DNA of 64,000 bases from Octopus vulgaris. Taxonomy: Eukaryota. How positions within the stretch are numbered: position 1 is the first letter of the stretch; each line of letters begins with the position of its first letter. The translations under genes were made by a program, and so were the position numbers. The stretch covers positions 4,464,001-4,528,000 of the forward strand of contig OX597838.1 of assembly GCA_951406725.2 (NCBI GenBank), in the 5' to 3' direction. Positions 15,648 to 61,288 of the stretch are shown here, piece after piece. The notes under the pieces are model-generated. The model did no database searches, was not told the DNA's origin, and saw only the letters and a list, made by a program, of their open reading frames with translations.

Positions 15648-16001
15648 CATGTGTGTATTAAGGCGGCGAGCTGGCAGAATCGTAAGCACGCAGGGCGAAA
15701 TGCTTAGCGGTACCGTTACATTCTGAATTCAAATTCCAACCGGAACTGGTAAAGCTATAAATAGTAGGGTTTAAATATAGGTTCAAATAAATCCTTTTGT
15801 ATACAAAAAACAAACAAAAAAAAAAAAGGAGTCGGAGTTTACACGGGGTTCAGAAGAAATATGTCAACAAAAGTTTTGAAAAGAAAACTTGCAGAGAAAT
15901 GCCAAGGTGCAAAGATAGACAGGTAGACAGACAGACAGACAGGTAGAGTGGCAGCTTGGTTAGGTAGAACAGACAGGAAGTATAAAGAGTATTTCACTCA
16001 C

Positions 16002-16170
16002 TGTCAGTCAAGCCCCATCCCAGAACCCAGCACTCCCGGTTGACAAAGGTCTCGGTTGAGTTTTCCGGGAGGGCTATGGGAACTACCGCAGGCGTGACTT
16101 GAGCCTTCTGCGACAGCTTGACCAGTGCTATGTCGAATGGGTAACCGGAAGTCTCAACGAATTTTGGATG
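16002..16170 (-). CDS. S1A serine protease, exon 4 (catalytic Asp)
   Basis: CAG|CAT...GAC A|GTGAG; 169 nt, phase 0->1; HPKFVETSGYPFDIALVKLSQKAQVTPAVVPIALPENSTETFVNRECWVLGWGLTD, with DIAL and GWG motifs. Confidence 0.95.
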
Positions 16171-16259
16171 CTGCCATAAGAAAAAAAAAAAAAAAAAAAA
16201 AAGAGAATGATAAATAAATTAAGGAAAAAAAAAAAAGAGAATCTGGATTGAATAGTTCG

Positions 16260-19011: not shown

Positions 19012-19020
<9 letters not shown>
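18645..19020 (-). mobile_element. non-autonomous Helitron-like element in (TA)n
   Basis: Minus-strand 3' end: hairpin CCCGAGCAACGCCGGG then CTAG; body shared with 21495-21775; (TA)n on both sides. Confidence 0.7.
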
Positions 19021-19073
<53 letters not shown>

Positions 19074-19811
19074 GTGAATGAATTATCCTATGTTTATCGT
19101 CAGCATGGAAAATTCGTTTAACCGAAACCTGGGTAGCAAATTCACGTCAGAAACACGGTTGAAGCGACCTGTCCAAGGGTTCATGTGCAGAAATTTGTGT
19201 GTTGTATATGAATAAATGAAAGAATGGAGTCGAACGAAGATGTTAACAAAATTCCTTTACTCTCGACATATGTTTCGAAGACAACATGTTTTCATTCCAA
19301 AGGAATAAAGGGTGCATTATGTAATCTTCTCATCCGCCCACGAACAGACATAGAGACATAGAGACAACAGACATGCACAGACATAGAGATAAAAATACCC
19401 ATCACAAACTCCCCAACAATCCATCACAAACAAATGAATTTCCTCCTGCGCCTTACCAACAATTTCAAGAAATACGAACCCCACATTACTGAAATAATAC
19501 ATAGAGCCTATGCAAAAATAGGAAAGAGCTGACCAATGAACCAACAGGTGCATTAGACCACAAGTACACCAGCGGATATACCTTTTAAATATACATAACC
19601 GTTACTCCTTTACTCTTTTACTTGTTTCAGTTATTTGACTGTGGCCATGCTGGAGCACCGCCTTTAGACGAGCAAATCGACCCCAGGTTCTATTCTTTGT
19701 GAGCCTAGTACTTATTCTATCGGTCTCTTAGGCCGAACCGCTAAGTTACGGGGACGTAAACACTCCACCATCGGTTGTCAAACGATGTTGGAAGAGATAA
19801 ACACAGACACA

Positions 19812-21994: not shown

Positions 21995-22932
21995 TTCTTT
22001 CTTTCTATTCAGCTGAAAGGATAAATCAACGATATGAACTGACACAAATACTTTGTAAGCCAGTCTCACGTGCTCTCCCGATTAACCCTTGATCAAACTG
22101 CTAGAAATAGCAACCAAATCACATCTCAGCCCTCTTAAAACAAAACAAAACAAAAACAACAAAACAACAAAAATCAATCAAAAAACTATCAAAAATAGAG
22201 GACGCATTGTATAATGTAGTCCAGGTTACACTATGCTCAAACAGAAGTGGATATCATCATGGACAGTTGGTTTCTGAATACAGATCAGCCCGACTTAGGG
22301 CTAAAATACAAGTTGTAACAACAACAGCCTTTACATGTATTCAAAATATGAAACCTGATGAATTCTGGTTGCTTTGAAGAATAAACGAATAATATCAGAA
22401 GGTCCTCAGGTTGTTCGCTTTATTTTTGTTTCTTTCTTTTGTTTTGTTCTATATTTGAGAGATGAGGAATTACTCTTTTACTTGTTTCAGTCATTTGACT
22501 GTGGCCATGCTGGAGCACCGCCTTTATAGTCGGCAAATCGACCCCCCCCCCCCAGGACTTATTCTTTGTAAGCCTAATACTTATTCTATCGGTCGTTTTT
22601 TTTGCCGAATCTCTAAGTTGCGGGGACGTAAACACGTCAGCATCGGTTGTCAAGCGATGTTTGGTGGGGTGGGGGGGGGGGACAAACACACACACACACA
22701 CATACATACGCACACACACACACACATACACACACACACACATGCACGTGCACAGATATTACACGAAAACACACACGACCACGACCACGACCACCAACAC
22801 CAACGCCACCATGCGGCCAGACATCTCACCCTACTCACACATATACACCTCCGCCACCACCACCGCCACCATCCCCCACCACCAAGGTCGCTGCCGCATC
22901 CACACATATGCACATACTCAACTCTACAACGT

Positions 22933-22993
<61 letters not shown>

Positions 22994-23191
22994 ACTTCTT
23001 CACACACATACACGCATACACACACTAAAAATATACCATCACTACTACCACCCCACCCCCACCACAGTACTATCTCCCCCAACCCCCGCCACACGACACG
23101 AACAACGAGGGTGAACCCGTATGTGGTCGCTAGATCTGCTGGAAATAACAGCCAAAAGAACAGCGGAAGATATCAAATAAAGAGGACTTAC

Positions 23192-23288
23192 AACGTAGAT
23201 TCCTGATACGAATATTTTCTGCTCGTCGCCGCTGTCCACAGACGTGTCATATTCTCCAAGGATCACTTGAAAGTTGTCCGGGTTAGCG
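23192..23288 (-). CDS. S1A serine protease, exon 3
   Basis: CAG|C...GTT|GTAAG; 97 nt, phase 2->0; (S)[32 protein letters not shown], the typical VxLGEyD segment preceding HP. Confidence 0.92.
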
Positions 23289-23350
23289 CTGGAATTGAAA
23301 CCACTTCATTAGGGTTTGAAACTTCGAAAGCATTTGATGTGTACTTATAG

Positions 23351-23385
<35 letters not shown>

Positions 23386-23499
23386 ACACACACACACACA
23401 CACATACATACACACGCACGCACACACGCACATACACACACGCACGCACGCACGCACGCGCGCACACACACACACGCACACGTATATATACAAGGAAAA

Positions 23500-24780
23500 T
23501 AAGACAATGCTAAAATGATTTTATCATGAAGAACATTTTAGTGCCGGTTTCTGCCTTTGCGACTTTTTCAACTTTCAGTTAGAGGGCTCGCACTTTCTAT
23601 GGTCATTCAAAACCGTCGTGCACATCTTTACATTTCCCCAGTCACCCTGCAAAGCCATTAAAAAATCAATAGAAGTGACTTTTTTGTGAATTTTCTATCC
23701 AAAACCCAATCAAAATGCCTGAAACTTGATATGCCAATTGAATGCCAGCTAGCTGTATGTGATTGGTCGGAGATTTGGACAGTACTTGCATGTATGAGCG
23801 CACGCACGCAGCTGTATATGCATGCACTAGCATTATGACCCGGCAACGGCGGGTCGTAGTGCTAGTAATCTAATAAATTTTCAATATAAACATTTTTCTC
23901 TTTCAAAACATTGTATCTTGGTTAGTTTATGTGAAGTGGCCGAAATCATTTTGCACGGCGATGTTTGGTAGTTGTCTCGCATCTTCCCCTCTCATTCAGA
24001 ACCCCCAGTACAAAAGTTGAGGGTAACTCTTTCTCCAGAAGCTGAGAAGAAGTCAGATGATGAGAGACCCACTCACCAAGGCTTCACACAGTTTCCCAAC
24101 TTCGTCAGATGATGAGAGACCCAGAAGTCAGATGATGAAAGACAACTAAATTGTGGAAAAATTAAAAGAAATGTTTTCAAAAAATATTTCCAGTTTTCAA
24201 ATACAAGGGACATTTTCCTTTTTTCCATCTGTCCCTCTCTCTTTTCTGAAGGCTCGGTATGTAGATAGTAGGTAGTAGTTAGAGGCAAATGTAGCCGAGG
24301 AAGGAGACGGCAAGAAAAATGTTTCTTCTTCTTCTTCTTCTTCTTCTTCTTCTTCTTCTTCTTCTTCTTCTTCTTCTTCTTCTCCTCCTCCTCCTCCTCC
24401 TCCTTCTTCTTCTTCTTCTTCTTCTTCTTCTTCTTCTTCTTCTTCGCCGTCTCCTTCCTCGGCTACTGCTGCTTAAACTATCAAAGCCAAGAACTCACAT
24501 CCCTCATATCAAATATTCTTTTACATCTGTTACTACCTACCTACCTACCTACCGAACCTTCACAAAAGTAAAAGAGAGAAAGGGGCAGACAGAAAAAGGA
24601 AAATGTCCTTGCATTTGAAAACTATGGAAATATTTAAAAAAAAACATTTCATTTAATTTTTCCACAATTGTTTTTCATGCTTGACTGAAAGTTGAAAAAG
24701 TCACAAAGACAGAAACCGGTACTAAAATGCTCTTCATGATAAACTTATCTTATCATTGTCTACCTTGTCTTATATTTCCA
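23500..24780. repeat. degenerate nested fold-back (inverted repeat) element
   Basis: ~23505-23580 is inverted to ~24683-24760, and ~24150-24318 to ~24443-24668, with a (CTT/CCT)n centre. Confidence 0.75.
23576..23866 (+). mobile_element. Helitron-like fragment with intact 3' terminus
   Basis: GACCCG-GCAACGG-CGGGTC hairpin then CTAG (23862-23865); the 5' part of the same family lies on the minus strand at ~29984-30155. Confidence 0.65.
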
Positions 24781-24843
24781 TATACATATCAACTTGCGTG
24801 TTACTTTGCAACCGTCTACATTCGCGTGCGCGCGCACTCACAC

Positions 24844-24894
<51 letters not shown>

Positions 24895-25292
24895 GGAGTA
24901 AACACATAAATGTGAAACAAGGTGGAAAAAAGAGTACTCAAATACCAGTGGTAGAGTAATATGCTTTATTTAGACAGTTTTTGCTAGAAAAAACTGTCTA
25001 ATGAACGGCAACGAGAAACTCAGAGTAACAGATTTTGTTGAATTTTCTGCTGCTTTAAATAAAGTATATATATATATATATATTATGTGAAATAGAAAGA
25101 TGAATAATCTTGTAGCAGATTAATCAAAAGTTTAACCGATACCTTGGTAGCAAAAATCACAGCAGAAAACAGCACGGTTGGAGGTACAACCATATGGTGT
25201 TGCAACCGTGCGTTGGTGCGGATAATTGAAATTAAAATATTATTGGTGAATTGAAGAAATGGAGCTGAACGAAGATTGAACAGAAATCGTTT

Positions 25293-25385
25293 TATTTCAT
25301 TCTACACGTGTTTCGAAAGGCACAATTTACCAAAATCCGATTGAATAATGAGACCATATTGTGTCTTTCTCTTCAGGAAGAAATA
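25293..25385 (-). ncRNA. minimal type-I hammerhead ribozyme (mirror copy; sense in the protease pre-mRNA)
   Basis: Reverse complement of 25721-25813. Confidence 0.7.
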
Positions 25386-25720
25386 GGAAATCCGTTGGAA
25401 AAAACAAAAACAGAACAGAGGCGGAGCAAAACAAATCGAACTAGGCTCCTAAGTATACACACACATGTCTCTAAGTAGATTTTTTCTCGCCCCTTATAAA
25501 ACATCCAATATTCCTTAAATAGTCAGAACTTTATTCTCGGTCACAAAGAACATCTACACACCCTCACCCACATGATTGACCGCTGCCTGACCCGTTAAAA
25601 TCTTCAGCCACCGGTTCTCAACATACACTGATAAACAGTTTTGCCATGGGCCCTTAGGAGCCTAGTTCGATTTGTTTTGCTCCGCCTCTGTTCTGTTTTT
25701 GTTTTTTCCAACGGATTTCC

Positions 25721-25813
25721 TATTTCTTCCTGAAGAGAAAGACACAATATGGTCTCATTATTCAATCGGATTTTGGTAAATTGTGCCTTTCGAAACACGT
25801 GTAGAATGAAATA
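25721..25813 (+). ncRNA. minimal type-I hammerhead ribozyme
   Basis: Stem I TATTTCTTC/GAA-T-GAAATA; core CTGAAGA (25730-36); 12-bp stem II GAAAGACACAAT/ATTGTGCCTTTC with 1 mismatch; GAAA (25792-95); palindromic stem III ACACGTGT; GUA cleavage triplet (after 25803). Confidence 0.72.
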
Positions 25814-25863
25814 AAACGATTTCTGTTCAATCTTCGTTCAGCTCCATTTCTTCAATTCACCAA

Positions 25864-25927
<64 letters not shown>

Positions 25928-25995
25928 TATATATGAGTAAATAAAAAAAGACGTATGCAGACATACACAGTCTACATATATAAAATGTGTATTAC

Positions 25996-26176
25996 CTGAA
26001 AGCGACGCAGTGGGCAGCCGTAAGGAGCCAGTCTTCTTTGAAGAGAGAAGCTCCACAAAGATGATTAAAGTAATAGTCGGGCGAAGGGCGATAGCGAATT
26101 GAGGCCTGGTGCAACCATTTGCGCTCCGTCACGTCATTGCCACCCACGATGAACAGATTGGTCAACTGGGCTGTAT
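25996..26176 (-). CDS. S1A serine protease, exon 2 (activation site IVGG, catalytic His)
   Basis: TTTTCAG|AT...AG|GTAAT; 181 nt, phase 1->2; (D)TAQLTNLF-IVGGNDVTERKWLHQASIRYRPSPDYYFNHLCGASLFKEDWLLTAAHCVAF(S). Confidence 0.95.
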
Positions 26177-26220
26177 CTGAAAATAATCAATCATCGATAA
26201 GTATCTTCTTTGTCTGACGT

Positions 26221-26274
<54 letters not shown>

Positions 26275-29200
26275 AGAGAGAAACAGATACAAAGAGAGAG
26301 GGAGATGTATCAAACATGCATGCGTGCAGTCACACACATGCAGACCGGAGCAAATGTTGCAAGCTGTGCATAGCGAATGGGCGAGGATATTGAAGAAACC
26401 CCCAAGAAGAAGAAGAAGAAGAAGAAGAAGAAGAAGAAGAAGAAGAAGAAGAAGAAGAAGAAGAAGAAGAAGGGACTCCTTCATAGAGTAACTGCTGCAT
26501 TTGTTGAGAATATAAACAATTTAGTTGCTTGTTTCTCTGGAGACTGTCAGAATGATGTGGGCGCCTCTGATGAGAGTCCAATAAGGTTCGAAAATCGAAT
26601 AAGGTTGTTCATTTTTTTTCAGTTTGCGGTGAAATGGCTAAAATTTTCCCTGTTTATAATTACACCAATGTTACATACATACACACATTACCCCTACCAC
26701 ACACACAAACACACAACTTATGTATGCACTTTATTCCCTTTTGTTCTTAAAACCATATTTCAAAACCTATTACTTCACAAAGAGATTTTCGTAATGTCTT
26801 TCTTAACAATAAACTTCCCGGTCCACCCTATATATGTTACGCTGTCTTAACCGACTTTTTAACGTTGTTTCGTATCTTTTGATGTAAGACAGAAATGTAC
26901 TGAAAGAAGATTGAGACAAAAACAATTCTCACCACCGTTGTTGTTGTTGTTGTTGTTGTTGTTTTGTTTGTCTAGATTGCAAAGCCACACTTCCCCCCCC
27001 CCACCGCCACCCATCCACCCCTACGACTATTTCTTTTCACCTTTCACGTCATTCTTCTCTGTCATCTACCATTAAGTAATTAAGAAGGCTTGCATAATAT
27101 GCCTTTTGCACGGACGCACACGGCAAAACATAATGTGTTTCTATTTATTTAGGCGCAGGCGTGGCTGTGTGGTAAGAAGCCGTTAATGTTCTGGGTTCAA
27201 ATTCCGCCGAGGTCGACTTTGCCTTTCATCCTTTCGGGGCCGATAAATTAAGTACCAATTTCTTTATTACCCACAAGGGGCTAAACACAGAGGGGACAAA
27301 CAAGGAGAGACATAGGTATTAAGTTGATTACATCGACCCCAGTGCGTAACTGGTACTTAATTTATCGACCCCGAAAGGATGAAAGGCAAAGTCGACCTCG
27401 GCGGAATTTGAACTCACAACGTAACGCAGACGAAATACCGCTAAGCATTTCGTCCGGCGTGCTACCGTTTCTGCCAGCTCGCCGATAAATTAAGTACCAG
27501 TTACGCACTGGAGTCGATGTAAACGACTTTATCCCTTTTTCAAATTTTTCAGACTAGAATCTACAGTCAACAAGAGAATTCCACAGAAGCTGCCTGATCG
27601 TGGTATCAGACGAGGAATGCAGGCCGCCATATAATTTGTTTGACATGGCGTTTGACATGCGCATTGCGTTTTTATTCTTCTCTTCCGTTTTACGAATTCA
27701 GTGTGCCCATATGCATTACGTGTTCAAACTTCTCTTTCTGGTTCCAATTCAAAACTGTTCACAGATTATAACCATCTCACGAACCTCCGATGGTTGTGAA
27801 AAAAAGGTAGGTCTACTCATAGACGAAGACAACTTTGGAAGACGAAAAAATTCCATGTGAAATGTTGTAGAATTTGAAAAGATAGCGACGCTGTTTGAAT
27901 GTTTTCGCTCCATATTTATCCCGTGTATTAAGTCAGCTTGTATGCCAAAAAATACGGTAAACGCTACTTTTTTCTCTTGGGATCCAACTTGTAATTATCT
28001 TCGCGCGTTGTGTATAGAAAGAATGGTTCAGCGTAAATTAGTAATGTGATCCTTAAAGATCAGCCAAATGGCTTTGATGTCTGAAGAGATATTTGCGTAA
28101 AAAAGAAAAAAAAAGAAAAAAAAACGGTGGAAAAGTCACGGGTTAAGTGTAATTATTATAATTGTTGTAATTGTTCTCTAGTTTACTGTCTGCAGATCAC
28201 TATTGCCAAAATGTTTGTCAGTTTGGTTAGGTTTTGGTTTGCAAACGTAAGATTACGATATTCCATAGCTTTTGTCTGAGAGTAAAAATATAATCCCTAA
28301 AAGTTAAACTGTGTGACTAATGCGGTGCTGTTGTGGGTTGTTATATATTCCTCATAATTCTTTCTGCCGAAGAGTGTAGGCTCGAAACGTAAATGACATT
28401 TCCATTTCCCCCGAACGTTAAACTAATACACCAGCTTGTTCCTTCACCTGTTTCCTGTAAATTTGTACTATATACGTTTTGAATACTCATGTAAACTTTC
28501 CTATTTTATTAAACCGGCTACAGCCTGATGATACCAACGTTCAAATGGCTGAGTACTCCACAGACACGTGTACCCTTAACGTAGTTCTCTGGAAGATTCA
28601 GCATGACACAGAGTGTGACAAGGCTGGCCCTTTGAAATACAGGTACAACAGAAACAGGAAGGAAGAGTGAGAGAAAGTAGTGGTGAAAGAGTACAGCAGG
28701 GTTCACCACCAGCCCCTGCCGGAGCCTCGTAGAACTTTAGGTGTTTAGAACAGAAGGTGGCGAGCTGGCAGAATCATTAGCATACCGGGCGAAATGCTTA
28801 GCGACATTTCTTCTGTCTTTACGTTCTGAGTTCAAATTCCGCCGTCATCCTTTTGGGGTTGATAAATTAAGTACTTAATCCGTTTGTCTGTCCTTGTTTG
28901 TCCCCTGTGTGTGTAGCCCCTTGTGGGCAGTAAAGAAATATGAACTTCGCTCAATAAACACTCACAATGCCCGATCTGGGAATCGAAATCGCGATCCCGC
29001 GACTGCGAGTCCTCTGTCCTAACCACTGTGCCATTGCGCCTCCACATGTAAGAATATATACATAGGCTTACATACACACACATACACAAATAATGTCTAA
29101 AACACAAGTGAGTAATAAAAATGATCCTACATGGTTTTGCGTACATGTATGTATATGTGTATACGTGTATGCGTGTATGTGTGTGTGTTTGTGCGTATGC

Positions 29201-30184
29201 GTGATTGTGTGCGATTATTATTTTTTTTGTACTCGTATAAACTGCGAATGTTAATTTGTCCTCAAAACTGACCGCTCCTCACTTTCTCTCCCCCACCACG
29301 TGAGGCCACGTGTATAAGTGTGTGTGTGTGTGTGTGAGCGTGTATATGTTTGCACATATGTTCGTATGAGTGTGTGTGTATGTATGTATGTATGTATGTA
29401 TGTATGTATGTATGTATGTATGTATGTGTGTGTGTGTGTGTGTACGTGTGTATGTTCGCATGTGTATGTATGTATGTATGTGTGTGTGCGTATGTCTGTG
29501 TGTGTGTATGAGTGTGTTTGTGAATGTGTGTGTATGTATGTTTGCACATCAGTTCGCATGTGTGTATGTATCTATGTGTGTGTGTGTGCGCATGTATGTG
29601 TACGTTTGCATATATGTTCGCATGCGTGTGTGTGTGTGTGTGTGTGTGTGTAACAAATCTTTTGTTGACTCAATATTGGCTTTGAGAGAACATTCCTCGA
29701 CTGAAGTGATTTGAACCTGAGTCCGCCAGGAAATACCTATCGCCTGAACAGCCGGCAACAACCAACCACAGGATGATCACAATGGGAACGTCTCTGAACA
29801 ACGGCTTGCTCAACATCCGGTTCGACACTGAGCAAAATTACAACAATAACAGCAACAGCAGCAACAACAACAGTGGAGGCGCAATAGCCCAGTGGTTAGG
29901 GCAGCGGACTCGCGGTGGTAAGAACGCGGTTTCGATTCCCAGACCGGGCACTGTGAGTGTTTATTGAGCAAAAACACCTAAGCTCTATTGATTTTTTAAT
30001 GGCTTTGCGGGGTGACTGGGGAAATGTAAAGATGTGCACGAGCACACTTGGACGGTTTTGAATGACCATAGAAAGTGCGAGCCCTCTAACTGAAAAATTG
30101 TTGATTTGTATAAAGGACACACACACAGACATTTTGCCGTTTATATATATAGAGATGTTCATTTCAAGAAGTTACTGTACATTG

Positions 30185-30680
30185 TTAATATTTCGTGTGA
30201 CTTTCTTTAGCTTAAATAATTGCTTCAATGCACCTGGGAAGAGATGCGTACAAATCGTTCACCATCCTCACAGGTATGAGATGCCATTCTCTGTGGTTGA
30301 GCTCCCGCAACTCTTCAAGATTGCGTGCATTCTTCTGACGAACTCTTCTCTTTAGTTCTGTCCACATTTGCTCGATGGTATTTAAGTCAGGGCTCTAAGT
30401 TGGCCAAACTTTCAATACAGTAACCCCTTCATCAGCCAGACTCCGTTGTGTTGCACGCGATCTGTGGCGTGGAGCTCCGTCATGCTGGAAAATCTCACCT
30501 TCATCCAAGTCTGGTATCAAATTGTCCTTCGGCAACTGGATGTATTTGGCAGTATTCAAGTTCTCGTGAATTTTAACCAACTTTCTTGAACCATCACCTT
30601 TTATGTATCCCCAAAGCATCAGACTCTTACCCCCAAACTTCACTGTTTTCGTCGTGTAACGGGGGTCGTTTCCCTTTCTA
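30185..30680 (-). mobile_element. Tc1/mariner transposase remnant (pseudogene)
   Basis: TVKFGGKSLMLWG...FQHDGAPRH...WPT*SPDLNTIEQMW...HTKY*; DDE-domain motifs with in-frame stops. Confidence 0.88.
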
Positions 30681-30926
30681 GTAAGCGAGATTTTGTCAGA
30701 AGGCCCCCAGGAAAGCGAAATGACTCCAACGGGGCCAATCTTTCATCTGTAAAAAGAACGCAATGCGAAATATCCACTTATAAGTTGGTAATTAGTAGAA
30801 ATTTACAATAGTTTAAAATAACCGAAGACTTTTGCACGATATACATATACATAGTATGTGACCTCGTCTGTATCACTAGCAATTTTTTTTCCTGTCTTCC
30901 CTTCTCGGGACCTTTCCTTCACCTAT

Positions 30927-32594: not shown

Positions 32595-32809
32595 TCGATG
32601 TAAACTCAAGTTTTAAAACAAACATAATTTTCGTATGGTTTTTTAGACATTCACTAGTACAACACTAAGTACAAAACCAAATATATGGCACCCTAGTCAT
32701 AACACCAACACGAACTTCCAACTTGTCTCTTGAGGTCTCTGGGTGAGACTTGGAGCCAGCTTGTGCAAATGTAAAGCAAAAGTCAAATATAGAATAATAA
32801 TAATAATAA

Positions 32810-33675
32810 TATTAAAATCAGAGACCGAAAGGTTTATCATAGCAACCCAAGATCAATACCTACTAACAAGGACCTACCAGGCCAACATATTAAAGAACGA
32901 CAGTAGACCAACATGTCGTGTATGTAAACAACAAAATGAAACCATCGATCATGTTGTCTCCAGGTTCAGTTTTCGTGAGTCTACAGAGTATCTCAACAGG
33001 CATAATAGACCAGCACAGTATATTCACTAGGTAATTTGCAAAAACTTTGACCTGCCCCATGATAAAAACTCGTGGGAACACAAACCACCTCCAGTGCTTG
33101 AAAATGATCGCATCTCACTCCTCTGGAACTTCACCATTCAAACTGACAGAAAGTTAGATGCGAATAGGATAGACATTATATTGAAGGACTTCAGACAAAA
33201 ACCATGCCTCGTCATTGATATGATTGTCCCAATCGACATAAATGTATCTGTCAAGACTTACCAAAAACTGGGCGAGTATAAAGATCTTGAAATAGAAATT
33301 GGCAAAATGTGGAACCCAAGACTAAAACGATACCTGTTGTCATAGGTGTTCTAGGAATGATAGCAAAAGGGGTTGCTTCTTACCTAGCTCAGGTACTAGG
33401 AAATCCATAAATGAATGAAATTTAAAAAATGCTGCTCATGGGAACTGCCCATATCTTACGTTAAATACTGTCTATGTAATCTCAAATTTAAAAACAAACT
33501 TATAATTTTCTTATGTTTTCTTAAACATTCTCGAGAACAACACTTTGTGCAAAACCAAAAGCCAAATATATGACACCCTAGGCATAACACCAGCATGAAT
33601 TTCTAACTTGTCTCTTGAGGTCTTTGGGTGAGACTTGGTGTCAACTTGTACATATAAAAAGCAAAAGTCAAACAT

Positions 33676-45303: not shown

Positions 45304-45476
45304 TTAGAAAGAGAAACGTTGGGTAGGTTTGTATCCGAGTTTGTCGAGATGTGGCAGACAGGCAGAGTTTATCATGGGAGGTGGGCCGCACATCAGAATG
45401 AGGACGTCCTCAGCAGGGGCTGGTAGGTGGTCCTTGATCATGGTCTCGTTGACGAACCCAGTACTGAAGCTCCAAT
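45304..45476 (-). CDS. CYB5R3: NADH-cytochrome b5 reductase, last exon
   Basis: 173 nt; (N)[56 protein letters not shown]; CGPPPM motif. Confidence 0.95.
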
Positions 45477-46084
45477 CTATAAAATACAAAGAGGGAGAGA
45501 GAAAAAAAAAAGGTATGAAAAAAATGTAAACAAAAAAAAAAGAACCTCCAACTCCCCCCCCCCCCACACACACACAAATGCACAAAAAAAATTAAAATGT
45601 TAAATAATAAAATGACCCAGGAAACAATAAGAATAAGGGCTGGTGGCATGAAAAACGTACCCAGTACATTGTGGTTGGCATTAGGAAGGGCATCAAGCTG
45701 TAGAAAGCATGTCAAAACAGATAAGTGGACCCTAGTACAGCCCTCCAGCCTTGCCAGCTACTGTCAAACTGTCCAATTCATGCCAGCATGGAAAACGGAC
45801 ATTAACCCTTTCGTTACCATATTTCTGTTGAGATGCTCTGTTTTTTTTTTTCAATGAATTTAGTAAAATAACTTAGTTATAATTAAGCTAGTGTTAGGAA
45901 CATAAATTGTGACTAAGGTTTGGTGGAAGATTTTAATTCCAAACTTATGAAAACAAGACATTTGTGCTACAGAATCAGAGCTGGTTTCAGCCAGGTTGGT
46001 AACGAAAGGGTTAAATAATGACGATGATGATGATGATGACATATTTGGTGTTAACTCATATATACCCATAAAAAATTTTACTTT

Positions 46085-46515
46085 ATTTACATTCGACGGA
46101 TATTTGTCCTAATCTTGTTTGTTGTTAATATAATGTTTCGGCTGATATACCCTCCAGCCTTCATCAGGTGTTTTGGGGAAATTTCGAACCTGGGTTCTCA
46201 TTTTTCAATGTTGTTATTATTATTATTATTATTATTCAGGTTGCTATTTGGAATCAAACTCAGAATCTTAGGGTTAGCAGCCTGTGCTCTTAACCACTAC
46301 GCCATATGCCCACGGGCACTACACTACGGCATATGCTCACGGGCATATGGTGTAGTGGTTAAGTGCGTGGGCTACTAACCCCAAGATTCCAAGTTTGATT
46401 CCAGGTAGTGACCTGAATAATAATAATAATAACATTGAAAAATGAGAACCCAGGTTTGAAATTTCCCCAAGACACCTGATGAAGGCTGGAGGGTATATCA
46501 GCCGAATGTAAATAA
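46085..46515. mobile_element. fold-back element: divergent tRNA-like heads, each followed by an (AAT)n spacer and a hammerhead-like tail
   Basis: Right arm: A-box TGGTGTAGTGG (46348-58), B-box GTTTGATTCC (46393-402), CTGATGA at 46476 with a GGCTG/CAGCC stem. The left arm is its inverted copy (CTGATGA on minus at 46161-67). Confidence 0.7.
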
Positions 46516-47821
46516 TGTATATAATTCCTCATCTCTTAAATATAGAACTGAAGAATTTTACTGTATTTAGATTAAACGTTCTGGTAAGCTTTCACAATCT
46601 GGAAGAGAAGGGCCGCATGCAACTGTTAGCTACGGGTATCCACTCCCTACTGACCATTTCGTATGCTCAGTCAGATGCTTCCAGGCGAGTCCATGTCCAA
46701 ACAAGTAGGAGCAGGTTTTGCACTGCGGAAATGCAACAAGGGGTATATATGGGTTTAAGAAGGGCATCCAGCCATAGAAACCATGCCAGATTAGAACAAT
46801 GGAGCTGGGTGCAGCCCCTGGCCTCACTAGCTCTGGTCAAATTATCCAACCTAGACCAAGTGGGGCATATATGTTTAACCCTTAACTCTTTAGTGTTTGC
46901 ATTATTCTGCCAAAATTAATCCTTTTTTTCCACATTGTTTTGAACTAATCATGCATTATCTTGTAGCTATGAGATTTTGATGAGGTAGCTGTTAATTTTT
47001 AAGATGATATTGTAGGGTTGGTGTGAGAGACCAGATCTGGCCAGTTTGAACATAAAATAGGCAGAATACTTTTGGCCAGATACGGCCGGTTTAGATGCTA
47101 AAGGGTTAAACAGCAGGGAAAAGTTGGCGTGCGTATGTATCTCCTTAAGAATAATTTTTATCCCTTTTTTTTACTTTAGCCTTTCGGTATTCAGATTTCT
47201 TCTCAAATATAGAGTTTGTCTGTTTATATTGTTTCGAATTTATCATTCATTATGTTGTAGTTTAGAGATTTTGAGGTGATTGTTTAATTTTAGAATTGTT
47301 ATGATGTGATGGCATTTTCCAGTTATAATGTGTGGCCTCTGTTGTGACTGTAGCTCTTGTATCTATTCCAGTAGCCATCATAATCTCTTGGTATCGGATA
47401 CAGTGTATCTCTTCTATACTGGAAATGGTAAACTGCTTGGTTTATCATGCTATCACTGATAGCTCTGCAAGACAACCAGTTTGAACTGACTGCCTTGACT
47501 GTGACTCGAACACGGCTATAACATGTAACAGGCACTTAACTCCAACTGAGAACTTGTACGATGACTCTACAATGACCGACACACGACTTCCCAGTGTAAA
47601 GTGGTTGGCATTAGGAAGGGCATCCAGCTGTAGAAACCATGCCAAAACAGAGGCATGGAGCCCAGGCAGATCTCCAGCTGGCCAGATCCAGTCAGACTGT
47701 CCAACCTGTGCCAGCATGGAAAATGGATGTTAAATGATGGACGGATGGACACACATACATACACACATGCAACAACAACACAGACACAGTTGGGTTAGCC
47801 ATAATATGAACAAATACAAAC

Positions 47822-47921
47822 TTGGTTCAGCTTTGTCCACAGTAAACCACAAATGGAACTGGTCAGGGTGATCCTCAGCAATTTTCTCCAAGTCAGGGCG
47901 CAGCAGAATATCATTTTCAGT
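47822..47921 (-). CDS. CYB5R3: NADH-cytochrome b5 reductase exon
   Basis: 100 nt; [33 protein letters not shown]; TTTTCAG acceptor, A|GTTTGT donor. Confidence 0.93.
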
Positions 47922-48170
47922 CTGAAAATATAACACAGTAGATATATATAGTGTGGGATAAGTTTAAGGTCCTGGTAGGGTGCAAAGTTAGGGTATTTCC
48001 AGAGAAACACTCAACCCAAATACTGTTCCAGGCCAAAGCAGGAATTCCTCAGGTGTAGAAAAATCTAAGTTTCATGACCATCACACTGTAAAGTGGGTTT
48101 GGCATGGAGTAAATAATCCGAATAATAATAATAAGAAGACAAAGATAACTCTTTAAGACATTTTTAACCT

Positions 48171-48390
48171 TAGTAGGGTGCTAAGAGCACCATCCGAGCG
48201 TGATCATTGCCAGAGCGGCTATGTGGCCTCCGTGTCGGTGGCACGTAAAAGACACCATTCGAGCGTGATCGTTACCAGCATCGCCTTACTGGCACCGCTC
48301 GAATGGTGTCTTTTATGTGCCACCGACACGGAGGCCAGATAGCCGCTCTGGCAATGATCACGCTCGGATGGTGCCCTTAATACCCTACTA
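48171..48390. repeat. 95-bp inverted repeat (fold-back/MITE-like)
   Basis: Arms 48171-48265 / 48296-48390 with few mismatches; 30-nt spacer. Confidence 0.88.
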
Positions 48391-48664
48391 GCACGGGGCA
48401 CAAGTGCCAGTAAGGCGAAGCTGGTATATATATATATTTCTTTACTGCCCACAAGGGGCTAAACATAGAGGGGACAAACAAGGACAGACAAAGGGATTAA
48501 GTCGATTACATCGACCCCAGTGCGTAACTGGTACTTTATTTATCGATTCTGAAAGGATGAAAGGCAAAGTCGACCTCGGCGGAATTTGAACTCAGAACGT
48601 AACGGCAGACGAAATACGGCTACGCATTTCACCCGGCGTGCTAACGTTTCTGCCAGCTCACTGC

Positions 48665-48741
<77 letters not shown>

Positions 48742-49007
48742 GGGAGAGAATAGAATGGGCTTCATTCAGTTTCTGTCTTCCAAATACAAGACTTTGGTCA
48801 GCCCAGGGCTATGTTAGAAGATACTTGCTCAAGGCACCAGGCAGTGGGACTGAACCTGAAACCACATGGTTGGAAAGAAAACTTAACCACGTGGCCATGC
48901 TTGGACCGTTTCAAACCCCAAACACCATCCAAAAAAAGCAATAAAAAAAACCAACAAAAAAACACACCCCCAAAAGCAAACAAGATAAACAAGCGTAAGA
49001 CAGGTAC

Positions 49008-49093
49008 CTGGTTGGCGAACAGGAGGAACATTTCGAGATTGTGGCGAGACTCTTTGAGGATCTGTTTGATGATCTGCAGCATTGGAGTGATAC
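49008..49093 (-). CDS. CYB5R3: NADH-cytochrome b5 reductase exon
   Basis: 86 nt; (G)ITPMLQIIKQILKESRHNLEMFLLFANQ; completes the GGTGITP NADH-binding motif. Confidence 0.95.
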
Positions 49094-49537
49094 CTGGAGG
49101 AGGAGAGGAAGAGGAAGAAGAGAGAGAATGGAGAATGAGAATGATGGACGTAGTGAGGTGGCAGTGGGGGGGGGAGGAGAGGGGAGGGATATAGGAAGCT
49201 GTAGGAAGGTATGTGGAGTAGGGACATTACTGGGGAAGGGGGGGATTAGGGAGAGAGAGGAGAGCAGGGAAAAGAGAAGAGAGAACATATATGAGGAGAC
49301 ATTATGGGAGAGGGAGAATACAGAGAGAAAGAGGGAGGGAGAAAAGAGAGAGAGCGGATAAAGAGAGGGGAGGGAAGAGAACATATATAAGGAGACATTA
49401 CTGAGTAAAGGGGAATAGAGAGAGAGAGAGAGAGAGAGGGAGGATACGAGAGAGAGATTGCAGGGTGAGGAATAATGAAAAAAGAGAACAGTGAAAAGTG
49501 CCACTGACATAGTGTGCCAGTGCAATGTGCCTCTTAC

Positions 49538-49621
49538 CAGTGCCTCCAGCAATCATTCCAATTTTCTTCACAGTAACCACCTCATGAGGGGATTTCTTAT
49601 CAGGCTTGATGTGGAATTCAC
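49538..49621 (-). CDS. CYB5R3: NADH-cytochrome b5 reductase exon
   Basis: 84 nt; (G)EFHIKPDKKSPHEVVTVKKIGMIAGGT(G); GT-AG boundaries. Confidence 0.95.
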
Positions 49622-49627
49622 CTGGAA

Positions 49628-49659
<32 letters not shown>

Positions 49660-50921
49660 TAATAATCCTTTCTACTGGAAGCACAAGGCCTTAAATTTGC
49701 GGGAGGGGATTAAGTTGATTTACTTACATCGACTGAGGGTTGATGTAAGTAAATGAGTGGAAACTAAACCAGTGAGTGTTAAATTATAAGGCACTAAAAG
49801 GGAATGACTCTCCCCAGACACAGCAGTATCTATCTATCTATCTATCTATATTTATCAAAAGAAAAACAGGATGCAAAGGATTTAGTGGTACATATGTTTC
49901 TGGCTTTATTAGACAGTTTATATCAATGCATAATTGATGTAATATGTATGTCAATAGTCATCTTCAGCCGCGCACAATTACCACACCAAAGACATGTATT
50001 ACATTATAAGTTTGGGAAAAGGACGAGTTTCATTGGGGATGCGAATCCTCATAGTCGTGTACAACAGAGCGAGACACCAAAACAAAAACAAAGCGTCCAT
50101 ACCGTTTTTCACTTGATATATATATATATTATCACTATCAGCATTTAACGTCCGTTTTCCATGCTGGAATGGGTTGGACGGTTCGACTGGGCCTGGGAAG
50201 CCAGGAGGCTGCACCAGGCCCCAGTCTGTTTTGGCTTGGTTTCTATAGCTGAATGCCTTTCCCAATGCCAACCAATCCAAGAGTGTAGTGGGTGCTTTTT
50301 ACATGCCACCAGCACAAGTGTCACAACTACAATTTCCATTTGATATTGATATTGATGTACTTGACTCATTAGGTCTCCTCAAGCAAGGCATGTCACCCTA
50401 CGATCCAAGGGACTTTTTGAGTGGGCTCCTTATGTGACACTGGTGTAGGTTACAGCTGTGAACTCACTTTATTTGCCGGGTCTTCTCAGTCACAGCATAC
50501 CTCCAGAGGTCTCGGTCTTTTGTCATTGCCTGGTATATAAAAGAAAAAATCCAGTGAAATCTATGAAGGTAGTGTCAGTAGATCCAGTGGTAATCCGGGT
50601 GGAGTGCTGGTATGTAGATGAAGAGAGGTGCTGATAGTTTAGGAAGTGGTTCAGAAATGGAAGGCCAAAAAGTAGGAAGTTCGGACAGGATCAAACTGCT
50701 TGTTGTTCATACACCTGTCTCTGTCTTTTGTTTTTCTATAAATTTCAACTATATCATCATCGTGGCTGTGTGGTAAGTAGCTTGCTTACGAACCACATGG
50801 TTCCGGGTTCAGTCCCACTGCGTGGCATCTTGGGCAAGTGTCTTCTGCTATAGCCTCGGGCCAACCAACGCCTTGTGAGTGGATTTGGTAGATAGAAACT
50901 GAAAGAAGCCTGTCGCATATG

Positions 50922-50952
<31 letters not shown>

Positions 50953-51653
50953 ATGTATGTTTGTGTGTCTGTGTTTGTCCCCTTAGCATTGCTTGACAAC
51001 CGATGCTGGTGTGTGTACATCCCCGTCACTTAGCGGTTCGGCAAAAGAGACCGATATATTAAGTCCTGGGCTTACAAAGAATTAGTCCCGGGGTCGATTT
51101 GCTCGACTAAAGGCGGTGCTCCAGCATGGCTGCAGTCAAATGGCTGAAACAAGTAAAAAGAGTATCGTTTAACGTCCGTTTTCCATGCTGGCATGGGTTG
51201 GATGGTTTGACTGGAGTCTGGGAAGCCAGGAGGCTGCACCACACACACACACACACACACAATGGGCTTCTTTCAATCTCCATCACCCAAATTCACATCG
51301 AAGGCTGTAGTTAGCCTGGGGCTATAGATGCTTGTCCAATGTGCCACAGTGGGTCTGAACTTGAAACTCTGAGTGTGTGCGTGTGTGTGTGTGTGTGTGT
51401 CTGTCACCACACTGCTTCATAATCACTGTTGGTTTGTTTACATCCCCATAACTTAACAGTTTAGCAAAAGGAAACCAAAAGAATAACAGGCTAACTCCCT
51501 CCCCCTCCAAAAACAAAGAAGCAAGAACTAAAGTAATGGGTTTTTTTTCCCCCCAATTAAAACCCTTCCCAGTAGTGCTCCAGCATGGCCACAGTCCAAT
51601 GACTGAAACATGTAAAAGATGAAAGAAAAGAGAAAAAGATGTTGCCTAGTTAC

Positions 51654-51783
51654 CGTTTCCATGGTAAGTCAAAAGGCCAGAGGGACCTTTGACATCGATA
51701 TAATCCTCATTGGTGAGAGAATCCACGTGTTGGCTCATCTTGCCACCATTGGGGAATTTAGGATGGATTCCTTTCTTGTAGAC
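51654..51783 (-). CDS. CYB5R3: NADH-cytochrome b5 reductase exon
   Basis: 130 nt; [43 protein letters not shown](G); GGKMS FAD-binding motif. Confidence 0.95.
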
Positions 51784-53610
51784 CTGGAATTAGAGACACA
51801 CAACAGGTGGAGGTTATTTTGCAGTTGGAGAGAGACAGACACAAACACACACACACATATATATAAATGCTGAACGATGAAAATGAGCGCTCAACACTGC
51901 ATTGGTGGATAGAATATATTTGTGAATTAAGGCTACCAATGGTCCCAGGTTAAGAAAACTATCTTAATAATTTTTCAAGCCGATCACATGGAGGAATGGT
52001 GTTCATCTCCATTTCGGCCAAACACAAAGTCTCGGTGAATTTGCAGATATTCTCAAAGAGATCAATAAATCAAGGGGCGCTACTCCTAGAAGACATTTTT
52101 CAAGTAGTTATCTCCCTTGGGTTTGGCTTTTGGGCAAATAACCGTGTCGGACGGTAATGTTGTTTGCATTCTCTTATATTCTGGGTGTATGTGATGTTCA
52201 TATGCTTGTGTGTGTCATGGGGGAATATTTCTTCTCTGTGTGGAGTTTGTGTGTTATGTACATTCAAATTTTATGTTCAGGAAAATTATCCTGGTGAGAT
52301 TAGCGATGTGTTTACGTGCATAAAAACTTCTTTATGTTTATCATATCAAAACCCCTGCACGATGTCTTTAAACTATTTTCTTTCCTTCGCCATTGCTTCG
52401 TTGCCAAATTGTTTTGGCGCCTTTTTCTCCCAGCCTCTCTGATTCCTTCTCTCCCTCTCTCTCTCTCGGTCACTGCTTCTGTCCTCGCCTTCCACCCTCC
52501 TTCGTCCCCTCTCTCTCTTACCCTCTTGCGACTTGCTGCCTCAGCCATTCTGTTTCCATTGGCCGCTTGTTCAACATGTGTCTTATCACCGAAAAGGTAA
52601 TTTTTTCCACGCTGTTGATATTGTTTTTGTGTCTCTCTTTTTGTCTCAAAGCCATAGGGCGCCTGTGTCATCCATGTTTTTAACCGTTACTGTCTCCAAA
52701 AAAGATTTTTCGTTTCATGTTCATCTCTGTTGCGTTGCATTCTTTCCTTCTGTGGCTGGCTGATTCAGAGCGGATCTCAGAATTAAACAGCCGAAATCTG
52801 CAATGAGGGATCAGTTTCTGACTGAAGAATGAAGGCTTTGAATGACCCGTTTGTCTTTTTGTTCGTCCCTTCGTGTATTTCATGTTATTTATTTATGTAA
52901 AGGTTTATTATATACATACATACATACATACATACACATAGGTGTGTCAGTGCAGCATGCCTGTCAAGTGTCTAACAAGGGAAATAACTCATGTCAACTT
53001 ATCCATCTATATTGTAATAAAGTTTTAATTAGTCTTAAGTATGTAACTTTTACAGAAAGAAAGTAATTATTAAAATCTACCTTGTCTAGAAAAATCTTAT
53101 AAATTCCAATTTTAATATATTTTATTTTTAAAACCAAAATGTGGTCTTCAAACATTTTCTTTATCATTGAAGATTTCAACCTCATGATTTGTATTCACTG
53201 CGACACAGTGATCTTACAGCAAGATAGTGTCTGTTAATGTTCCTGCATATACTTAACTACAGATGTATCCCTTTTGCCTCCACTAAACTTTGTTTTCCCA
53301 TAACCTTCTGAACAATGGATATTTTTAAATGAAATTTTCAACAAATACATTTCAGATAGTGTTGATTATTTTAGAATTTGTTGTGAAAATTTTTGGGGAG
53401 TGGAACATAGGTGAGAGGAGTTTTAGATAATTGACACCAGTTGACCTTACTTCCTCATAACTGTCTAAGGAATGTGTATCTTCTAAAAAGATTATCTATA
53501 AATACATTTCAGATTTTGTTTGTCATCCTTTTAGGGGTTGATAAGAGTTGATAAAATGAAAAAAGACAACAACAGAAACAAGGTAAAAAAACAAAAAAAA
53601 CTAGTCATAC

Positions 53611-53717
53611 CTTGATGACAAGATCCATGTAGCCTTTGTCGTCATCACTGGACACAGGGGTGTAAGGTCGGACAACCAACTCACCATTGATCGTAGCAGA
53701 CAGGTAGATATGTTGAC
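53611..53717 (-). CDS. CYB5R3: NADH-cytochrome b5 reductase exon
   Basis: 107 nt; (G)[35 protein letters not shown]; RxYT flavin motif. Confidence 0.95.
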
Positions 53718-53974
53718 CTGTAAAGGACAAGGGAAGAGATAGAGAGAAAGGAGAGAGAGAGAGAGAGAGGGGGGAGGCATAGTGAGAAAGAAACAGAGAG
53801 AGAGACAGTCAGAGAAAGAGAGAAAGAAAGATGTCCAGATAGCGGGAGAGACAGCAGAACAGAGAGAACGAAGAAAGAGAGAGAGTGTAAGAAAGAAGGT
53901 GAGAGCATGAGAGAGAAGGGGTACGAGAGAGAGAGAGTGAAAGAGAAAGGTAGAAAATCTCTTCTGCCACTTAC

Positions 53975-54047
53975 CTACAGGTAGACCCAATATGTGTTCG
54001 GGAGACGTCAATGCAAACCTGAATCGACGGGTGTCATGGCTGATTTC
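53975..54047 (-). CDS. CYB5R3: NADH-cytochrome b5 reductase exon
   Basis: 73 nt; [24 protein letters not shown](G). Confidence 0.95.
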
Positions 54048-54769
54048 CTACAGAGATGGTAGCAGCAGCAGCAGCAGCAGCAATGGTGGTGGTGGCGGGA
54101 GGAGGAGAAAACAGAGAAGAAATACCATTAGAGTTAGACTACAAACTGAAATGGAATGGGTGGTGATGGTGGAAGTGGTGGCAGCGTCTGTTGTAACCAT
54201 GGTAACTTATCTTCAAATGTAGACCAAACCACCAACAAAGAGAACCTTTATGGAATTGTCAGACATAACAGCCATGTCTCCCTTAACTCATTTTACTGCA
54301 AATATTCAATATACCCACTCCAAATTTCATTACCCTTAACTAGGCACAGGTAATCTTTGTTCTTGGAAAAGGGGCCATGTGAGACATGGCTCATCTTCAG
54401 GGAGGCCACACTACTAAAAGGTCATGGGCAGGAGTGGGAGCATATACTGTTGCAGTGTGTTGCAGCATTCATCATTTGTTGCCATATTCCCTGGCCCTCT
54501 TGAGTCCTCTTGGGCAACCTGTCAACGAGGAACCCAGCCAATCCCCATCTCTGCAAGACACCACCTCACCTACCATGACCATCTGGTATGTGCTTGATCA
54601 CCACGAGCCAACTCAAGACATAATCAAGCAACAATTTGTATTGGTCTCAATGGTATTAGATGTTAACCATCCAACCCATGCCAGCATGGAAAATGGATGT
54701 TAAATAATAATGATGGCCTATTGAAATAATTGAAGGTAATTGTTTGTTATGTAAGGAGCCCTTGACAAT

Positions 54770-55125
54770 GTAGTGTCTTAACCTTGGACACCCTTGCATT
54801 CACTGCAGGCCAGTAACCCACAGACCCAGTATGAACCAACGTATGAATTGTTCAACAGCAAGGTGACATGCAACAAATGATATTAGTACTTGCTCTGTGG
54901 AACTGGTCCACTGAGATCCAACAGCAAAAACAGTACTCTTTACTCTTTTACTTGTTTCAGTCATTTGACTGCGGCCATGCTGGAGCACCACCGTTAGTCG
55001 AACGAATCGAACCCAGGATTTATTCTTTGGAAGCCTAGTACTTATTCTATTGGTCTCTTTTGCCAAACCGCTAAGTTATGGGGGACAGCATTGGTTGTCA
55101 AGCAATGTTGGGGGGACAAACACAG

Positions 55126-55170
<45 letters not shown>

Positions 55171-56320
55171 TACGACGGGCTTCTTTCAGTTTCCGTCTAC
55201 CAAATCCACTCACAAGGCTTTGGTTGGCCCGAGGCTATAGCAGAAGACACTTGCCCAAGGTGCCACGCAGTGGGACTGAACCTGGAACCATGTGGTTGGT
55301 AAGCAAGCTACTTACCACACAGCCACTCCTACGCCTATAATGTATGCTGGGAGAAAATTTAGTCTCAGGCATGGACAACCTTTCACAAGAAGTGGGCCAC
55401 ATGTGGCATAAAGCGGCATCAGGAAGATTGAGCTACAAAAAAATTCCAAGATAATTCTTCATTACGTAAGGAGGAGTCCTTGGCTCTGTAGCATCTCAAC
55501 CTTGGATACACCTGCAATCACTGCAGGTTAGTAACCCACAGACCCAATATGAACGAACTTAGCAATTGCTCAACTGCTGGGAGACATGCGATAAATTATA
55601 AGTGTTTGTTCTGTGGAACTGGTCCATTGAGACAGACATGGCCAACTTTTTATGAAAAGTGGGCTGCATGAGAGCCACTGCCTGGTACTGCATCAGAGCA
55701 TTATTATTATCGTTATTATCATTATTATTATTAAGGTGGTGAGCTGGCAGACTCAGCGTGCTGGATGAAATGCTTAGTGGTGATTTGCCCATTGGTATGT
55801 TCTGAGTTCAAATTCTGCCGAGGTCGACTTTACCTTTCATCCTTTCAGGGTAGATAAATTAGTTCTTTACTAATTAGCATCAGGCAGGTTACATTATTTA
55901 AAATATTCAAGATTATGTAGCATCTTGGCCTTGAATAAATATCCTTGCAATCACTGCTGGGCAGTAACACAGACCAGGTACGAAGCAGGTAAAGAATCAT
56001 TCAACTACCAGGTGACATACAATAAATGTTAACAACGCTTGTTCTCTGGAACTGGTCCTTTGAAACCCAATAGCTAAATAGTTGTATGTGTGAGGGGAAG
56101 GATTAGTCACACACATGGACAGCATTTCACGAGAAGTGGGCTGCATGAGAAGGTAACTTTTTGTTAGGTAAAGAGCCCTTGACTATATGATGCCTTGGCC
56201 TTGGGTGCACCTGAGCAGATACAAACCGACCTATGAATCATTCAACTACTTAGTGACCCGCAACAAGCAGTAACAGCACTTGCTCTGTGGAACTGGTTTT
56301 TAGAGATACGACAGCGAAAG
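54770..56320. repeat. decayed tandem repeat (~4 units) interrupted by SINEs
   Basis: The block CACTGCAGG..AGTAACCCACAGACCC..TCTGTGGAACTGGTCC recurs at ~54800, 55520, 55950 and 56230. Confidence 0.7.
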
Positions 56321-57135
56321 AAGCTGTGTACGTTGGGAAAAGGTCAAATCACGGACAGGAGCCTATTTTTTTATCAAGACATGGGGCCAGGTGAGACATG
56401 GCTCATCATCAGGTAAGTCTCACTAATAAAACAATTTTTCGTTAGGCGTGGCCATTCAGAAAATCTCATGAGATTCAGTTTACCTGTAACAGGTGTAAAA
56501 ATATGCATAAAGCCCCCCCCCATCCCACCCCAACACCACCATCTCCTCCTCCTCTGCACATCAATATCAAGTAAAAATAAAAAAAAAAATGTTCATGTCC
56601 TGACAATAACTCATTGCTCGGTCACTTGTGACTATCAGCCTTGACTGAATGAAAGAGGAGAGAAATAGCAAAATATGTTGAGCTATTCACAATGACTAAA
56701 AGAGAAAGCTTTGTGAGCAAGGAGAGAAGTTTTCATGGTTGACTGCTCTTGGGAAGGACATATTTTTGTTCATTTGTTCAAACCAAACAGCATCACAAAT
56801 GTATATGTATACATGCATGCATGTATGTGTGTGTGTATATATATATATATATACACATACATACATACACATACCTACACATAAACAAATACATTATACA
56901 TTCACATCTACATAAATACATTCATGTCTATATACACACACACACATTCGTACATGTATACACACATTCGTACATGTATACACACATTCATACATATATA
57001 TACACATACATTCAAGCACACACACACACATGCACGTACTATATATAGATATATATATATATATATACGCACCAACTTACCATTCCATCACAGACACATA
57101 CAAATACACACACAGATATTGCATATGTGGTCTTT

Positions 57136-57167
<32 letters not shown>

Positions 57168-59060: not shown

Positions 59061-59128
<68 letters not shown>

Positions 59129-59130
<2 letters not shown>

Positions 59131-59247
59131 AAATTTAGAGGATTGACCACTAAAAGTGGACAGCCTGTATGCTAGATATAGATGCCAAAATCGTCTATAT
59201 CTAGCATACAGGCTGTCCACTTTTAGTGGTCAATCCTCTAAATTTTG
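59129..59247. repeat. 54-bp perfect inverted repeat (11-nt loop)
   Basis: Arms 59129-59182 / 59194-59247 are exact reverse complements; (TA)n adjacent. Confidence 0.92.
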
Positions 59248-61220: not shown

Positions 61221-61257
61221 TCTTTTACGTTTCGAGCCTACGCTCTTCAACAGAAAG

Positions 61258-61258: not shown

Positions 61259-61288
<30 letters not shown>

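Follow-up and report, generated by a model that had tools for sequence, protein, structure and literature searches.

The 64,000-nucleotide stretch of Octopus vulgaris DNA analyzed here (hereafter the window) carries, inside an intron of a trypsin-family protease gene, a perfect inverted repeat with a hammerhead ribozyme motif in each arm, an arrangement that raises the question of whether the mirror copy serves to trap a ribozyme that would otherwise cut the protease pre-mRNA, as the original prediction had it, or whether it is the trace left by the insertion of a mobile element. The locus is one copy of a high-copy repeat; with fairly high confidence we take it to be a short 5'-truncated insertion of a likely Penelope-like element (PLE), with a (TA)n microsatellite as its target and an inverted arm that probably arose during insertion. 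The mirror copy would then be a normal side product of the way such elements insert and probably not a gene-protecting device.

That the host is a protease gene transcribed from the minus strand is confirmed by Pfam Trypsin matches on that strand at 25995-26186 (E 5e-10) and 15997-16218 (E 4e-10). Its description as intron 2 stands insofar as a GT..AG intron (25995-23289) holds the insertion, the number itself being plausible from a candidate signal-peptide exon at about 29.8 kb, where a signal-peptide-like frame runs at about 29816-29721. The window also contains, on the minus strand, cytochrome b5 reductase-like exons at 45307-61545 (named from translations; Pfam NAD_binding_1 at 45307-45591, E 5e-8), decayed frames that by eye are Tc1-like transposases at 30215-30742 (30398-30742 being without a Pfam match), and a weak tRNA match of 30.1 bits at 59655-59726 that is possibly a SINE head; a non-LTR retrotransposon remnant lies on the plus strand at 32734-33345 (zf-RVT below the cut-off).

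Table 1. Coordinates, within the window, of the insertion, its parts, its host and its relatives.
Feature	Position	Strand	Remarks
Host intron, trypsin-family protease gene	23289..25995	-	GT..AG, 2707 nt; frame open across the intron
Protease exon (IVGG start, catalytic His motif)	25996..26176	-	125 nt from the right arm
Whole insertion	25084..25870		787 bp; the 3' region of a single repeat family in two copies, joined head to head with the tails outward
Sense copy	25454..25870	+	417 nt; 5'-truncated; stops at (TA)n, lacking the last 152 nt of the inverted copy
Inverted copy	25084..25453	-	370 nt; the 218-bp arm followed outward by 152 nt of family sequence up to (TA)n
Left arm of perfect inverted repeat	25236..25453	-	218 bp
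Right arm of perfect inverted repeat	25653..25870	+	218 bp; 0 mismatches between the arms
Spacer between the arms	25454..25652	+	199 nt; repeat-family sequence
Junction microhomology	25452..25453		2 nt common to the arm and the upstream continuation of the family; loose ends of runs X1 and X3 before 25452
Type I hammerhead motif	25721..25813	+	Predicted cut after 25803; antisense to the protease gene
Identical hammerhead motif, mirror copy	25293..25385	-	On the protease (transcribed) strand; predicted cut after 25303
Left (TA)n run	25065..25083		Common to the insertion and the neighboring element
Right (TA)n run	25871..25924		Touches the right arm
Diverged non-inverted relative	19069..19358	-	Extension, arm and decayed hammerhead; abuts (TA)n 19015-19068; next protease intron
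Neighboring element, other family	24893..25064	+	Flanked by (TA)n on both sides; minimal hammerhead, decayed (core 24998-25004); a short inversion of its own

The inverted repeat with a hammerhead in each arm had been located to the nucleotide, but the arms do not delimit the element, which is larger than originally described. The claim that (TA)n bounds the whole structure holds for the right arm, whereas the left arm is separated from its (TA) run by 152 further bases of the same repeat family (25084-25235), and the inverted copy as a whole is collinear with a diverged copy some distance away in the window (the 19-kb relative). Loose ends of public-run contigs reveal that the family continues upstream of 25452-25457, and the sense copy is therefore 5'-truncated. 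No ORF was found in the spacer, and a target-site duplication is not readable within (TA)n. With no difference over the 218 positions of the arms (upper 95% bound on divergence 1.4%), this copy looks young, in accordance with the recent origin proposed from arm identity.

In hammerhead core numbering, C3 U4 G5 A6 N7 G8 A9, G12 A13 A14 A15 and U16 H17 are all present in the plus-strand motif (CUGAAGA at 25730-25736, GAAA at 25792-25795, and 25802-25803), so that the claim of a complete core is upheld, together with its stems. Stem I (25721-25729 with 25804-25813) comprises nine pairs and one bulge (25807), and the palindrome of stem III occupies 25795-25802; stem II, announced as a 12-bp helix, does span 12 positions (25737-25748 with 25780-25791) and closes a 31-nt loop, but 11 of the 12 are paired, an A-C mismatch falling at 25742/25786. 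Between the motif and the outer ends of the insertion lie 67 and 219 nt, as compared with about 200 nt in the 19-kb copy. Two checks had been proposed at the outset, a descriptor-type search and a search with the Rfam hammerhead models. The strict descriptor returned exactly two matches on both strands of the window, namely the motifs of the two arms, as compared with 0.21 matches per window in 100 block-shuffled windows, among which a single match overall reached the same stem total. Rfam gave no hammerhead match at the gathering score in the whole window and none among the 45 matches at E up to 10 in the region 22000-29000, for which the long loop II is a likely reason. Further core-like strings (CUGANGA...GAAAC) occur on the minus strand at 46167, 49967, 24108 and 37387, the one at 46167 having a 6-bp stem II and lacking a clear cleavage triplet or stem I.

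Folding predictions indicate that the lone motif is mostly unfolded and needs a partner. The energy of the 106-nt monomer lies at z 0.21 relative to its shuffles, 120 of 200 of which fold as well; the hammerhead shape has a predicted probability of 0.017 (about 2%) in the monomer, the pair probabilities being 0.92 for stem II, 0.46 for stem I and 0.03 for stem III. The predicted minimum-energy fold of the dimer, by contrast, is a double hammerhead with an 8-bp stem III (-42.7 versus 2 x -14.9 kcal/mol), stem III being predicted between two molecules only and the helices being open at helix I. This fold agrees with the assignment of the motif to the dimer-type, type I hammerheads with a palindromic stem III of the Penelope-like kind.

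The repeat family is abundant in public contigs. Twenty of the 24 runs listed contain the stretch or part of it, and the best 18 span four organism labels; two wastewater RNA runs with small word shares are left aside here. When contigs from runs X1, X2, X3 and X12 were placed on reference positions 24893-25870, a range that includes the neighboring element, 15,911, 6,570, 5,490 and 478 contigs, respectively, found a place there, covering the extension, the arms and the spacer. Summed depth, which is not a copy number, amounts to 1.9e4-1.5e6 in every bin of 25091-25870 as against 39-477 for single junction contigs, and these values point to very many family copies. Run X12 covers 29 of 30 bins but, its RNA nature being a guess, does not count as evidence of transcription; TA loose ends stand behind 25869 in three contigs of X3. 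Exact-pattern scans of metagenome contigs and of viral contigs returned 0 matches. Penelope-like families are listed as recently active in O. vulgaris (31 families and 336 insertions; PMC13282606), in a study whose main text contains neither the word hammerhead nor the word ribozyme. The O. vulgaris repeat library may already include the present family.

Inversion is a habit of this family. The reference contains the sequence in both orientations, and an inversion in another copy therefore shows up as a jump from the left to the right part of the reference. Among the 15 of 75 joints and 12 of 32 rows listed (four rows in the neighboring element and five duplicates being set aside) there are at least 18 distinct head-to-head joints, 9 in X1, 6 in X2 and 3 in X3, all at different places and none common to two runs. 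In the contigs concerned, the shorter side of the joint spans 20-28 letters, less than the 30 advised as a caution with repeats, and a deletion within a different inverted copy could give the same picture. The joints are scattered: 0 of those listed keep both cores, 11 keep one and 7 none, a tally biased in that arms reaching into the spacer would count as strand changes. By hand count, and if each copy runs to the end of the family, the opposite copy misses the core in 5 of the 11 one-core joints.

Sequence variation within the family spares the center of the motif, as none of the 13 variable arm sites among the table rows listed falls within the 49 nt formed by the core, stems II and III and inner stem I (P 0.033, in a test chosen after the fact and with indels not counted). 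Outer stem I does vary, 25809 A>C accounting for 17-36% of the depth in X1-X3. The C of the window at 25652 is nearly private to it, T making up the whole depth of X1 and X12 and over 99.9% of that of X2 and X3.

Inside the window, a profile built from the insertion and the 19-kb copy matches these two and the right arm only. The 19-kb relative is collinear with the insertion across extension, arm and motif; it lies unmasked on the transcribed strand, with a core that reads CGGAUGA and with stem I lost. Between these two sequences only, 4 of the 16 pairs of stems II and III are changed on both sides; each of the six slid controls gave 0, and a count this high arose in 35 of 500 shuffles. The hammerhead core of the neighboring element bears a G-to-A change (G5A), and its motif resembles the Hydra-2_aMil row in the table of Craig et al. 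(PMC8557442). This element belongs to a second repeat family, older than the first, that also bears a hammerhead and occupies the same (TA)n; the public contigs contain three more inversion joints for it. Yet another dispersed repeat forms an 85% inverted pair in the same host intron (23488-23579 and 24684-24775) and recurs at 29984-30095.

The insertion is very probably the tail of a PLE, and would work like one. This assignment is based on the head-to-head copies of one 3' region with different outer ends, the (TA)n on both sides, the 2-nt microhomology and the variability of the junctions within the family; (TA)n also stands at the 19-kb copy, such a target not being exclusive to the Hydra clade. 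The inversions scattered through the family, taken with the published layout of PLE insertions, lead us to read the inverted arm as a by-product of insertion. The element's GIY-YIG endonuclease would nick both strands of (TA)n, and from each nick the element RNA would be reverse-transcribed, starting in one case at the far 3' site (yielding the end at 25084) and in the other at an AT-rich site 152 nt inside (yielding the end at 25870), whereupon the two truncated cDNAs would join head to head. The resulting extension is one-sided, but the 152 nt by which the outer ends differ exceed the 30-40 nt described for the PLE tail. The motif itself would serve the source element by cutting multimeric RNA, either as a double hammerhead or with the help of protein. 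No ORF for a reverse transcriptase or GIY-YIG endonuclease, the pair that characterizes EN+ PLEs, was found in the 787-bp copy or near it (ORF frames and Pfam), as is expected of a truncated or non-autonomous copy; the tie to an autonomous element is therefore indirect. Members of the Hydra clade are further told by RWK and DKT motifs, a CxCX5C linker and the lack of CCHH, all of them features of the protein. A Pfam search with 12 chosen frames returned only Trypsin (two frames), NAD_binding_1 (one frame) and sub-threshold matches, with no PLE protein remnant, and the 71-aa frame over arm and extension, in what is a weak test, yielded 27 candidates, with no match at E up to 1 when longer proteins are considered.

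Other explanations of the structure were weighed as well. The arm could have been made or homogenized by a fold-back read or by polishing, and it is true that the arms are 100% identical, that the junction of this very insertion (25453/25454) is bridged by no contig among the 32 of 28,710 pieces listed and that the C at 25652 is nearly private; but the arms have different outer ends, they are parted by 199 nt of ordinary family sequence, the junction shows microhomology and inversions of the same type stand in contigs built from the reads of three runs, all of which makes an assembly artefact very improbable. A MITE or DNA transposon with 218-bp terminal inverted repeats, a TA target and a captured hammerhead would likewise account for a long perfect inverted repeat with TA-rich borders. 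The repeat is, however, not terminal, given the 152 nt of family sequence beyond the left arm, the 19-kb relative is devoid of inversion and the junctions vary between copies; terminal inverted repeats fixed at the element ends were not observed, and a transposon of this kind is largely refuted and retains hardly any probability. Retrozyme units measure 170-400 nt and are arranged head to tail. A monomer derived from a tandem non-LTR retrozyme that spreads through circular RNA seems just as exceedingly unlikely, since the window contains no head-to-tail repeat, a unit of this family measures some 590 nt or more and none of the 15 of 75 joints listed is of the type that goes back, even though the type I motif, the lack of a detected ORF, the many runs containing it that are guessed to be RNA and the report that retrozymes are PLE derivatives (bioRxiv 2026.07.22.740005) fit this origin.

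The idea that the inverted arm was selected for masking calls for a closer look, as its physical premise is sound. According to this idea, an active motif would harm the protease pre-mRNA and the insertion survives because the antisense arm, being made first, traps the motif. The arms are predicted to form a duplex in transcripts of either strand, with a whole-hairpin energy of -434 kcal/mol; in the protease pre-mRNA the antisense arm precedes the motif, and prefix folding of the minus-strand RNA has each arm base pairing as it appears, 69 of 69 being paired when the motif begins, so that the motif is expected to be caught in the duplex before all of it has been made. Masking of the motif by the arm duplex is hence physically likely, and the one unmasked same-strand relative, in the next intron, does have a broken core and no stem I, albeit as a single case. 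Masking as a protective function nevertheless fares poorly. A motif that on its own is predicted to adopt the hammerhead shape some 2% of the time, to form almost no stem III and to need a partner leaves little to be masked, and no second intact motif on the same strand exists in the window. The metazoan PLE motifs tested showed no cleavage as monomers and low cleavage as dimers (Cervera and de la Pena 2014, PMC4209133), the motif of PAc depended on protein (Frangieh et al. 2024, PMC11167929), and hammerhead cleavage within an intron is reported, second-hand, to spare splicing, which a faster ribozyme stops (PMC2995048, citing Dye 2006 and Fong 2009). On these grounds masking is probably not needed. 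Inversions with scattered break points pervade the family, none of the joints listed keeps both cores, the opposite arm falls short of the core in 5 of the 11 one-core joints, as counted above, and the layout has already been published as a by-product of PLE insertion; selected self-masking is accordingly unlikely, indeed highly so.

With the inverted arm read instead as a product of PLE insertion, the arms of the protease pre-mRNA would zip into a long hairpin that is predicted to silence this copy as a mere side effect. In the open literature searched, we found no report of an intronic retroelement hammerhead masked by its own inverted arm. A variant of the selection argument, in which an ORF-less, Hydra-type mini-element has a working dimer- or protein-dependent hammerhead and selection filters intronic copies on the transcribed strand down to masked or core-decayed ones, appears very unlikely as well; if true, the genome would hold a natural, countable test of PLE hammerheads cutting host pre-mRNA, and inverted copies, if enriched on the sense strand of introns, would be rare in vivo evidence of ribozymes cutting host transcripts. 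The 218-bp perfect hairpin (25236-25870) would in addition be a candidate substrate for A-to-I editing or Dicer; no signal of A-to-I editing was found in the contigs, where A>G plus T>C sites number 9 in X12 and 8 in X2.

Comparison with known systems places the insertion within a well-described landscape. In Craig et al. 2021 (PMC8557442), the one paper on hammerhead ribozymes and Octopus in the open literature searched that bears on this locus, an inverted 5'-truncated copy next to the pLTR is a common PLE feature, and Hydra-clade PLEs share with our element a type I hammerhead near the 3' end, a palindromic or near-palindromic stem III of 4 bp and a (TA)n target. The closest parallel in layout is Penelope-13_HM of the supplement, an element that targets (TA)n and is accompanied by an inverted copy, truncated at its 5' end, so that the same hammerhead stands on either strand. 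In contrast, the Hydra rows compared have a stem II of 3-7 bp and a loop of 3-10 nt, as opposed to 12 positions and 31 nt here, and short motifs of our family were not found in the text of the supplement, where line breaks can hide matches.

In the same source, the 5' untranslated end of the octopus Hydra-clade element Hydra-1_Obim bears a likeness to the spacer in three blocks that are collinear by eye (25538-25548, 11/11; 25578-25596, 15/19; 25608-25616, 8/9; same order), the chance for the first two being about 1e-4 in a rough, after-the-fact estimate; the majority base of the family at 25583 would make the second block 14/19. Our insertion is without an ORF, and since its motif and 3' end differ from those of Hydra-1_Obim, it belongs to another family. 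A stretch resembling a 5' end 130 nt before the motif suggests, as a lead, an internally deleted, non-autonomous family, and whether the family derives in this manner from a Hydra-clade element is, on the strength of the by-eye match, an evenly balanced matter.

The minimal and palindromic-helix-III hammerheads of metazoan PLEs (PMC4209133) have the same conserved core, long helix II, palindromic helix III and predicted dimer, and dual hammerheads on opposite strands occur in Schistosoma at distances of 100-700 bp, to be compared with about 350 bp between the cores here. Our motif differs in its longer bulged stem I and longer loop II, and in that G10.1 follows A9 directly, without the typical extra unpaired base. 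For the mechanism, the model is Poseidon PAc of Anolis, the purified protein of which acts on AT-rich DNA by cutting as well as extending both of its strands, with two internal start sites that give two 3' ends (PMC11167929); in PAc, however, the ORF starts inside the hammerhead and the starts lie 30-40 nt apart, whereas here no ORF was found and the ends lie 152 nt apart. Non-LTR retrozymes, which the preprint cited above reports to be non-autonomous derivatives of PLEs, resemble the insertion in being non-coding, in carrying a type I hammerhead and in their likely descent from PLEs, but they are defined by tandem units, whereas the insertion is dispersed and inverted.

Both the motif class and the inverted layout have thus been published, and the family is a new member of a known group. 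The single locus matters little, but the family is modestly useful: its abundance, its young copies, its unusually long stem and loop II and its clean predicted double hammerhead make it a convenient object on which to test PLE hammerheads.
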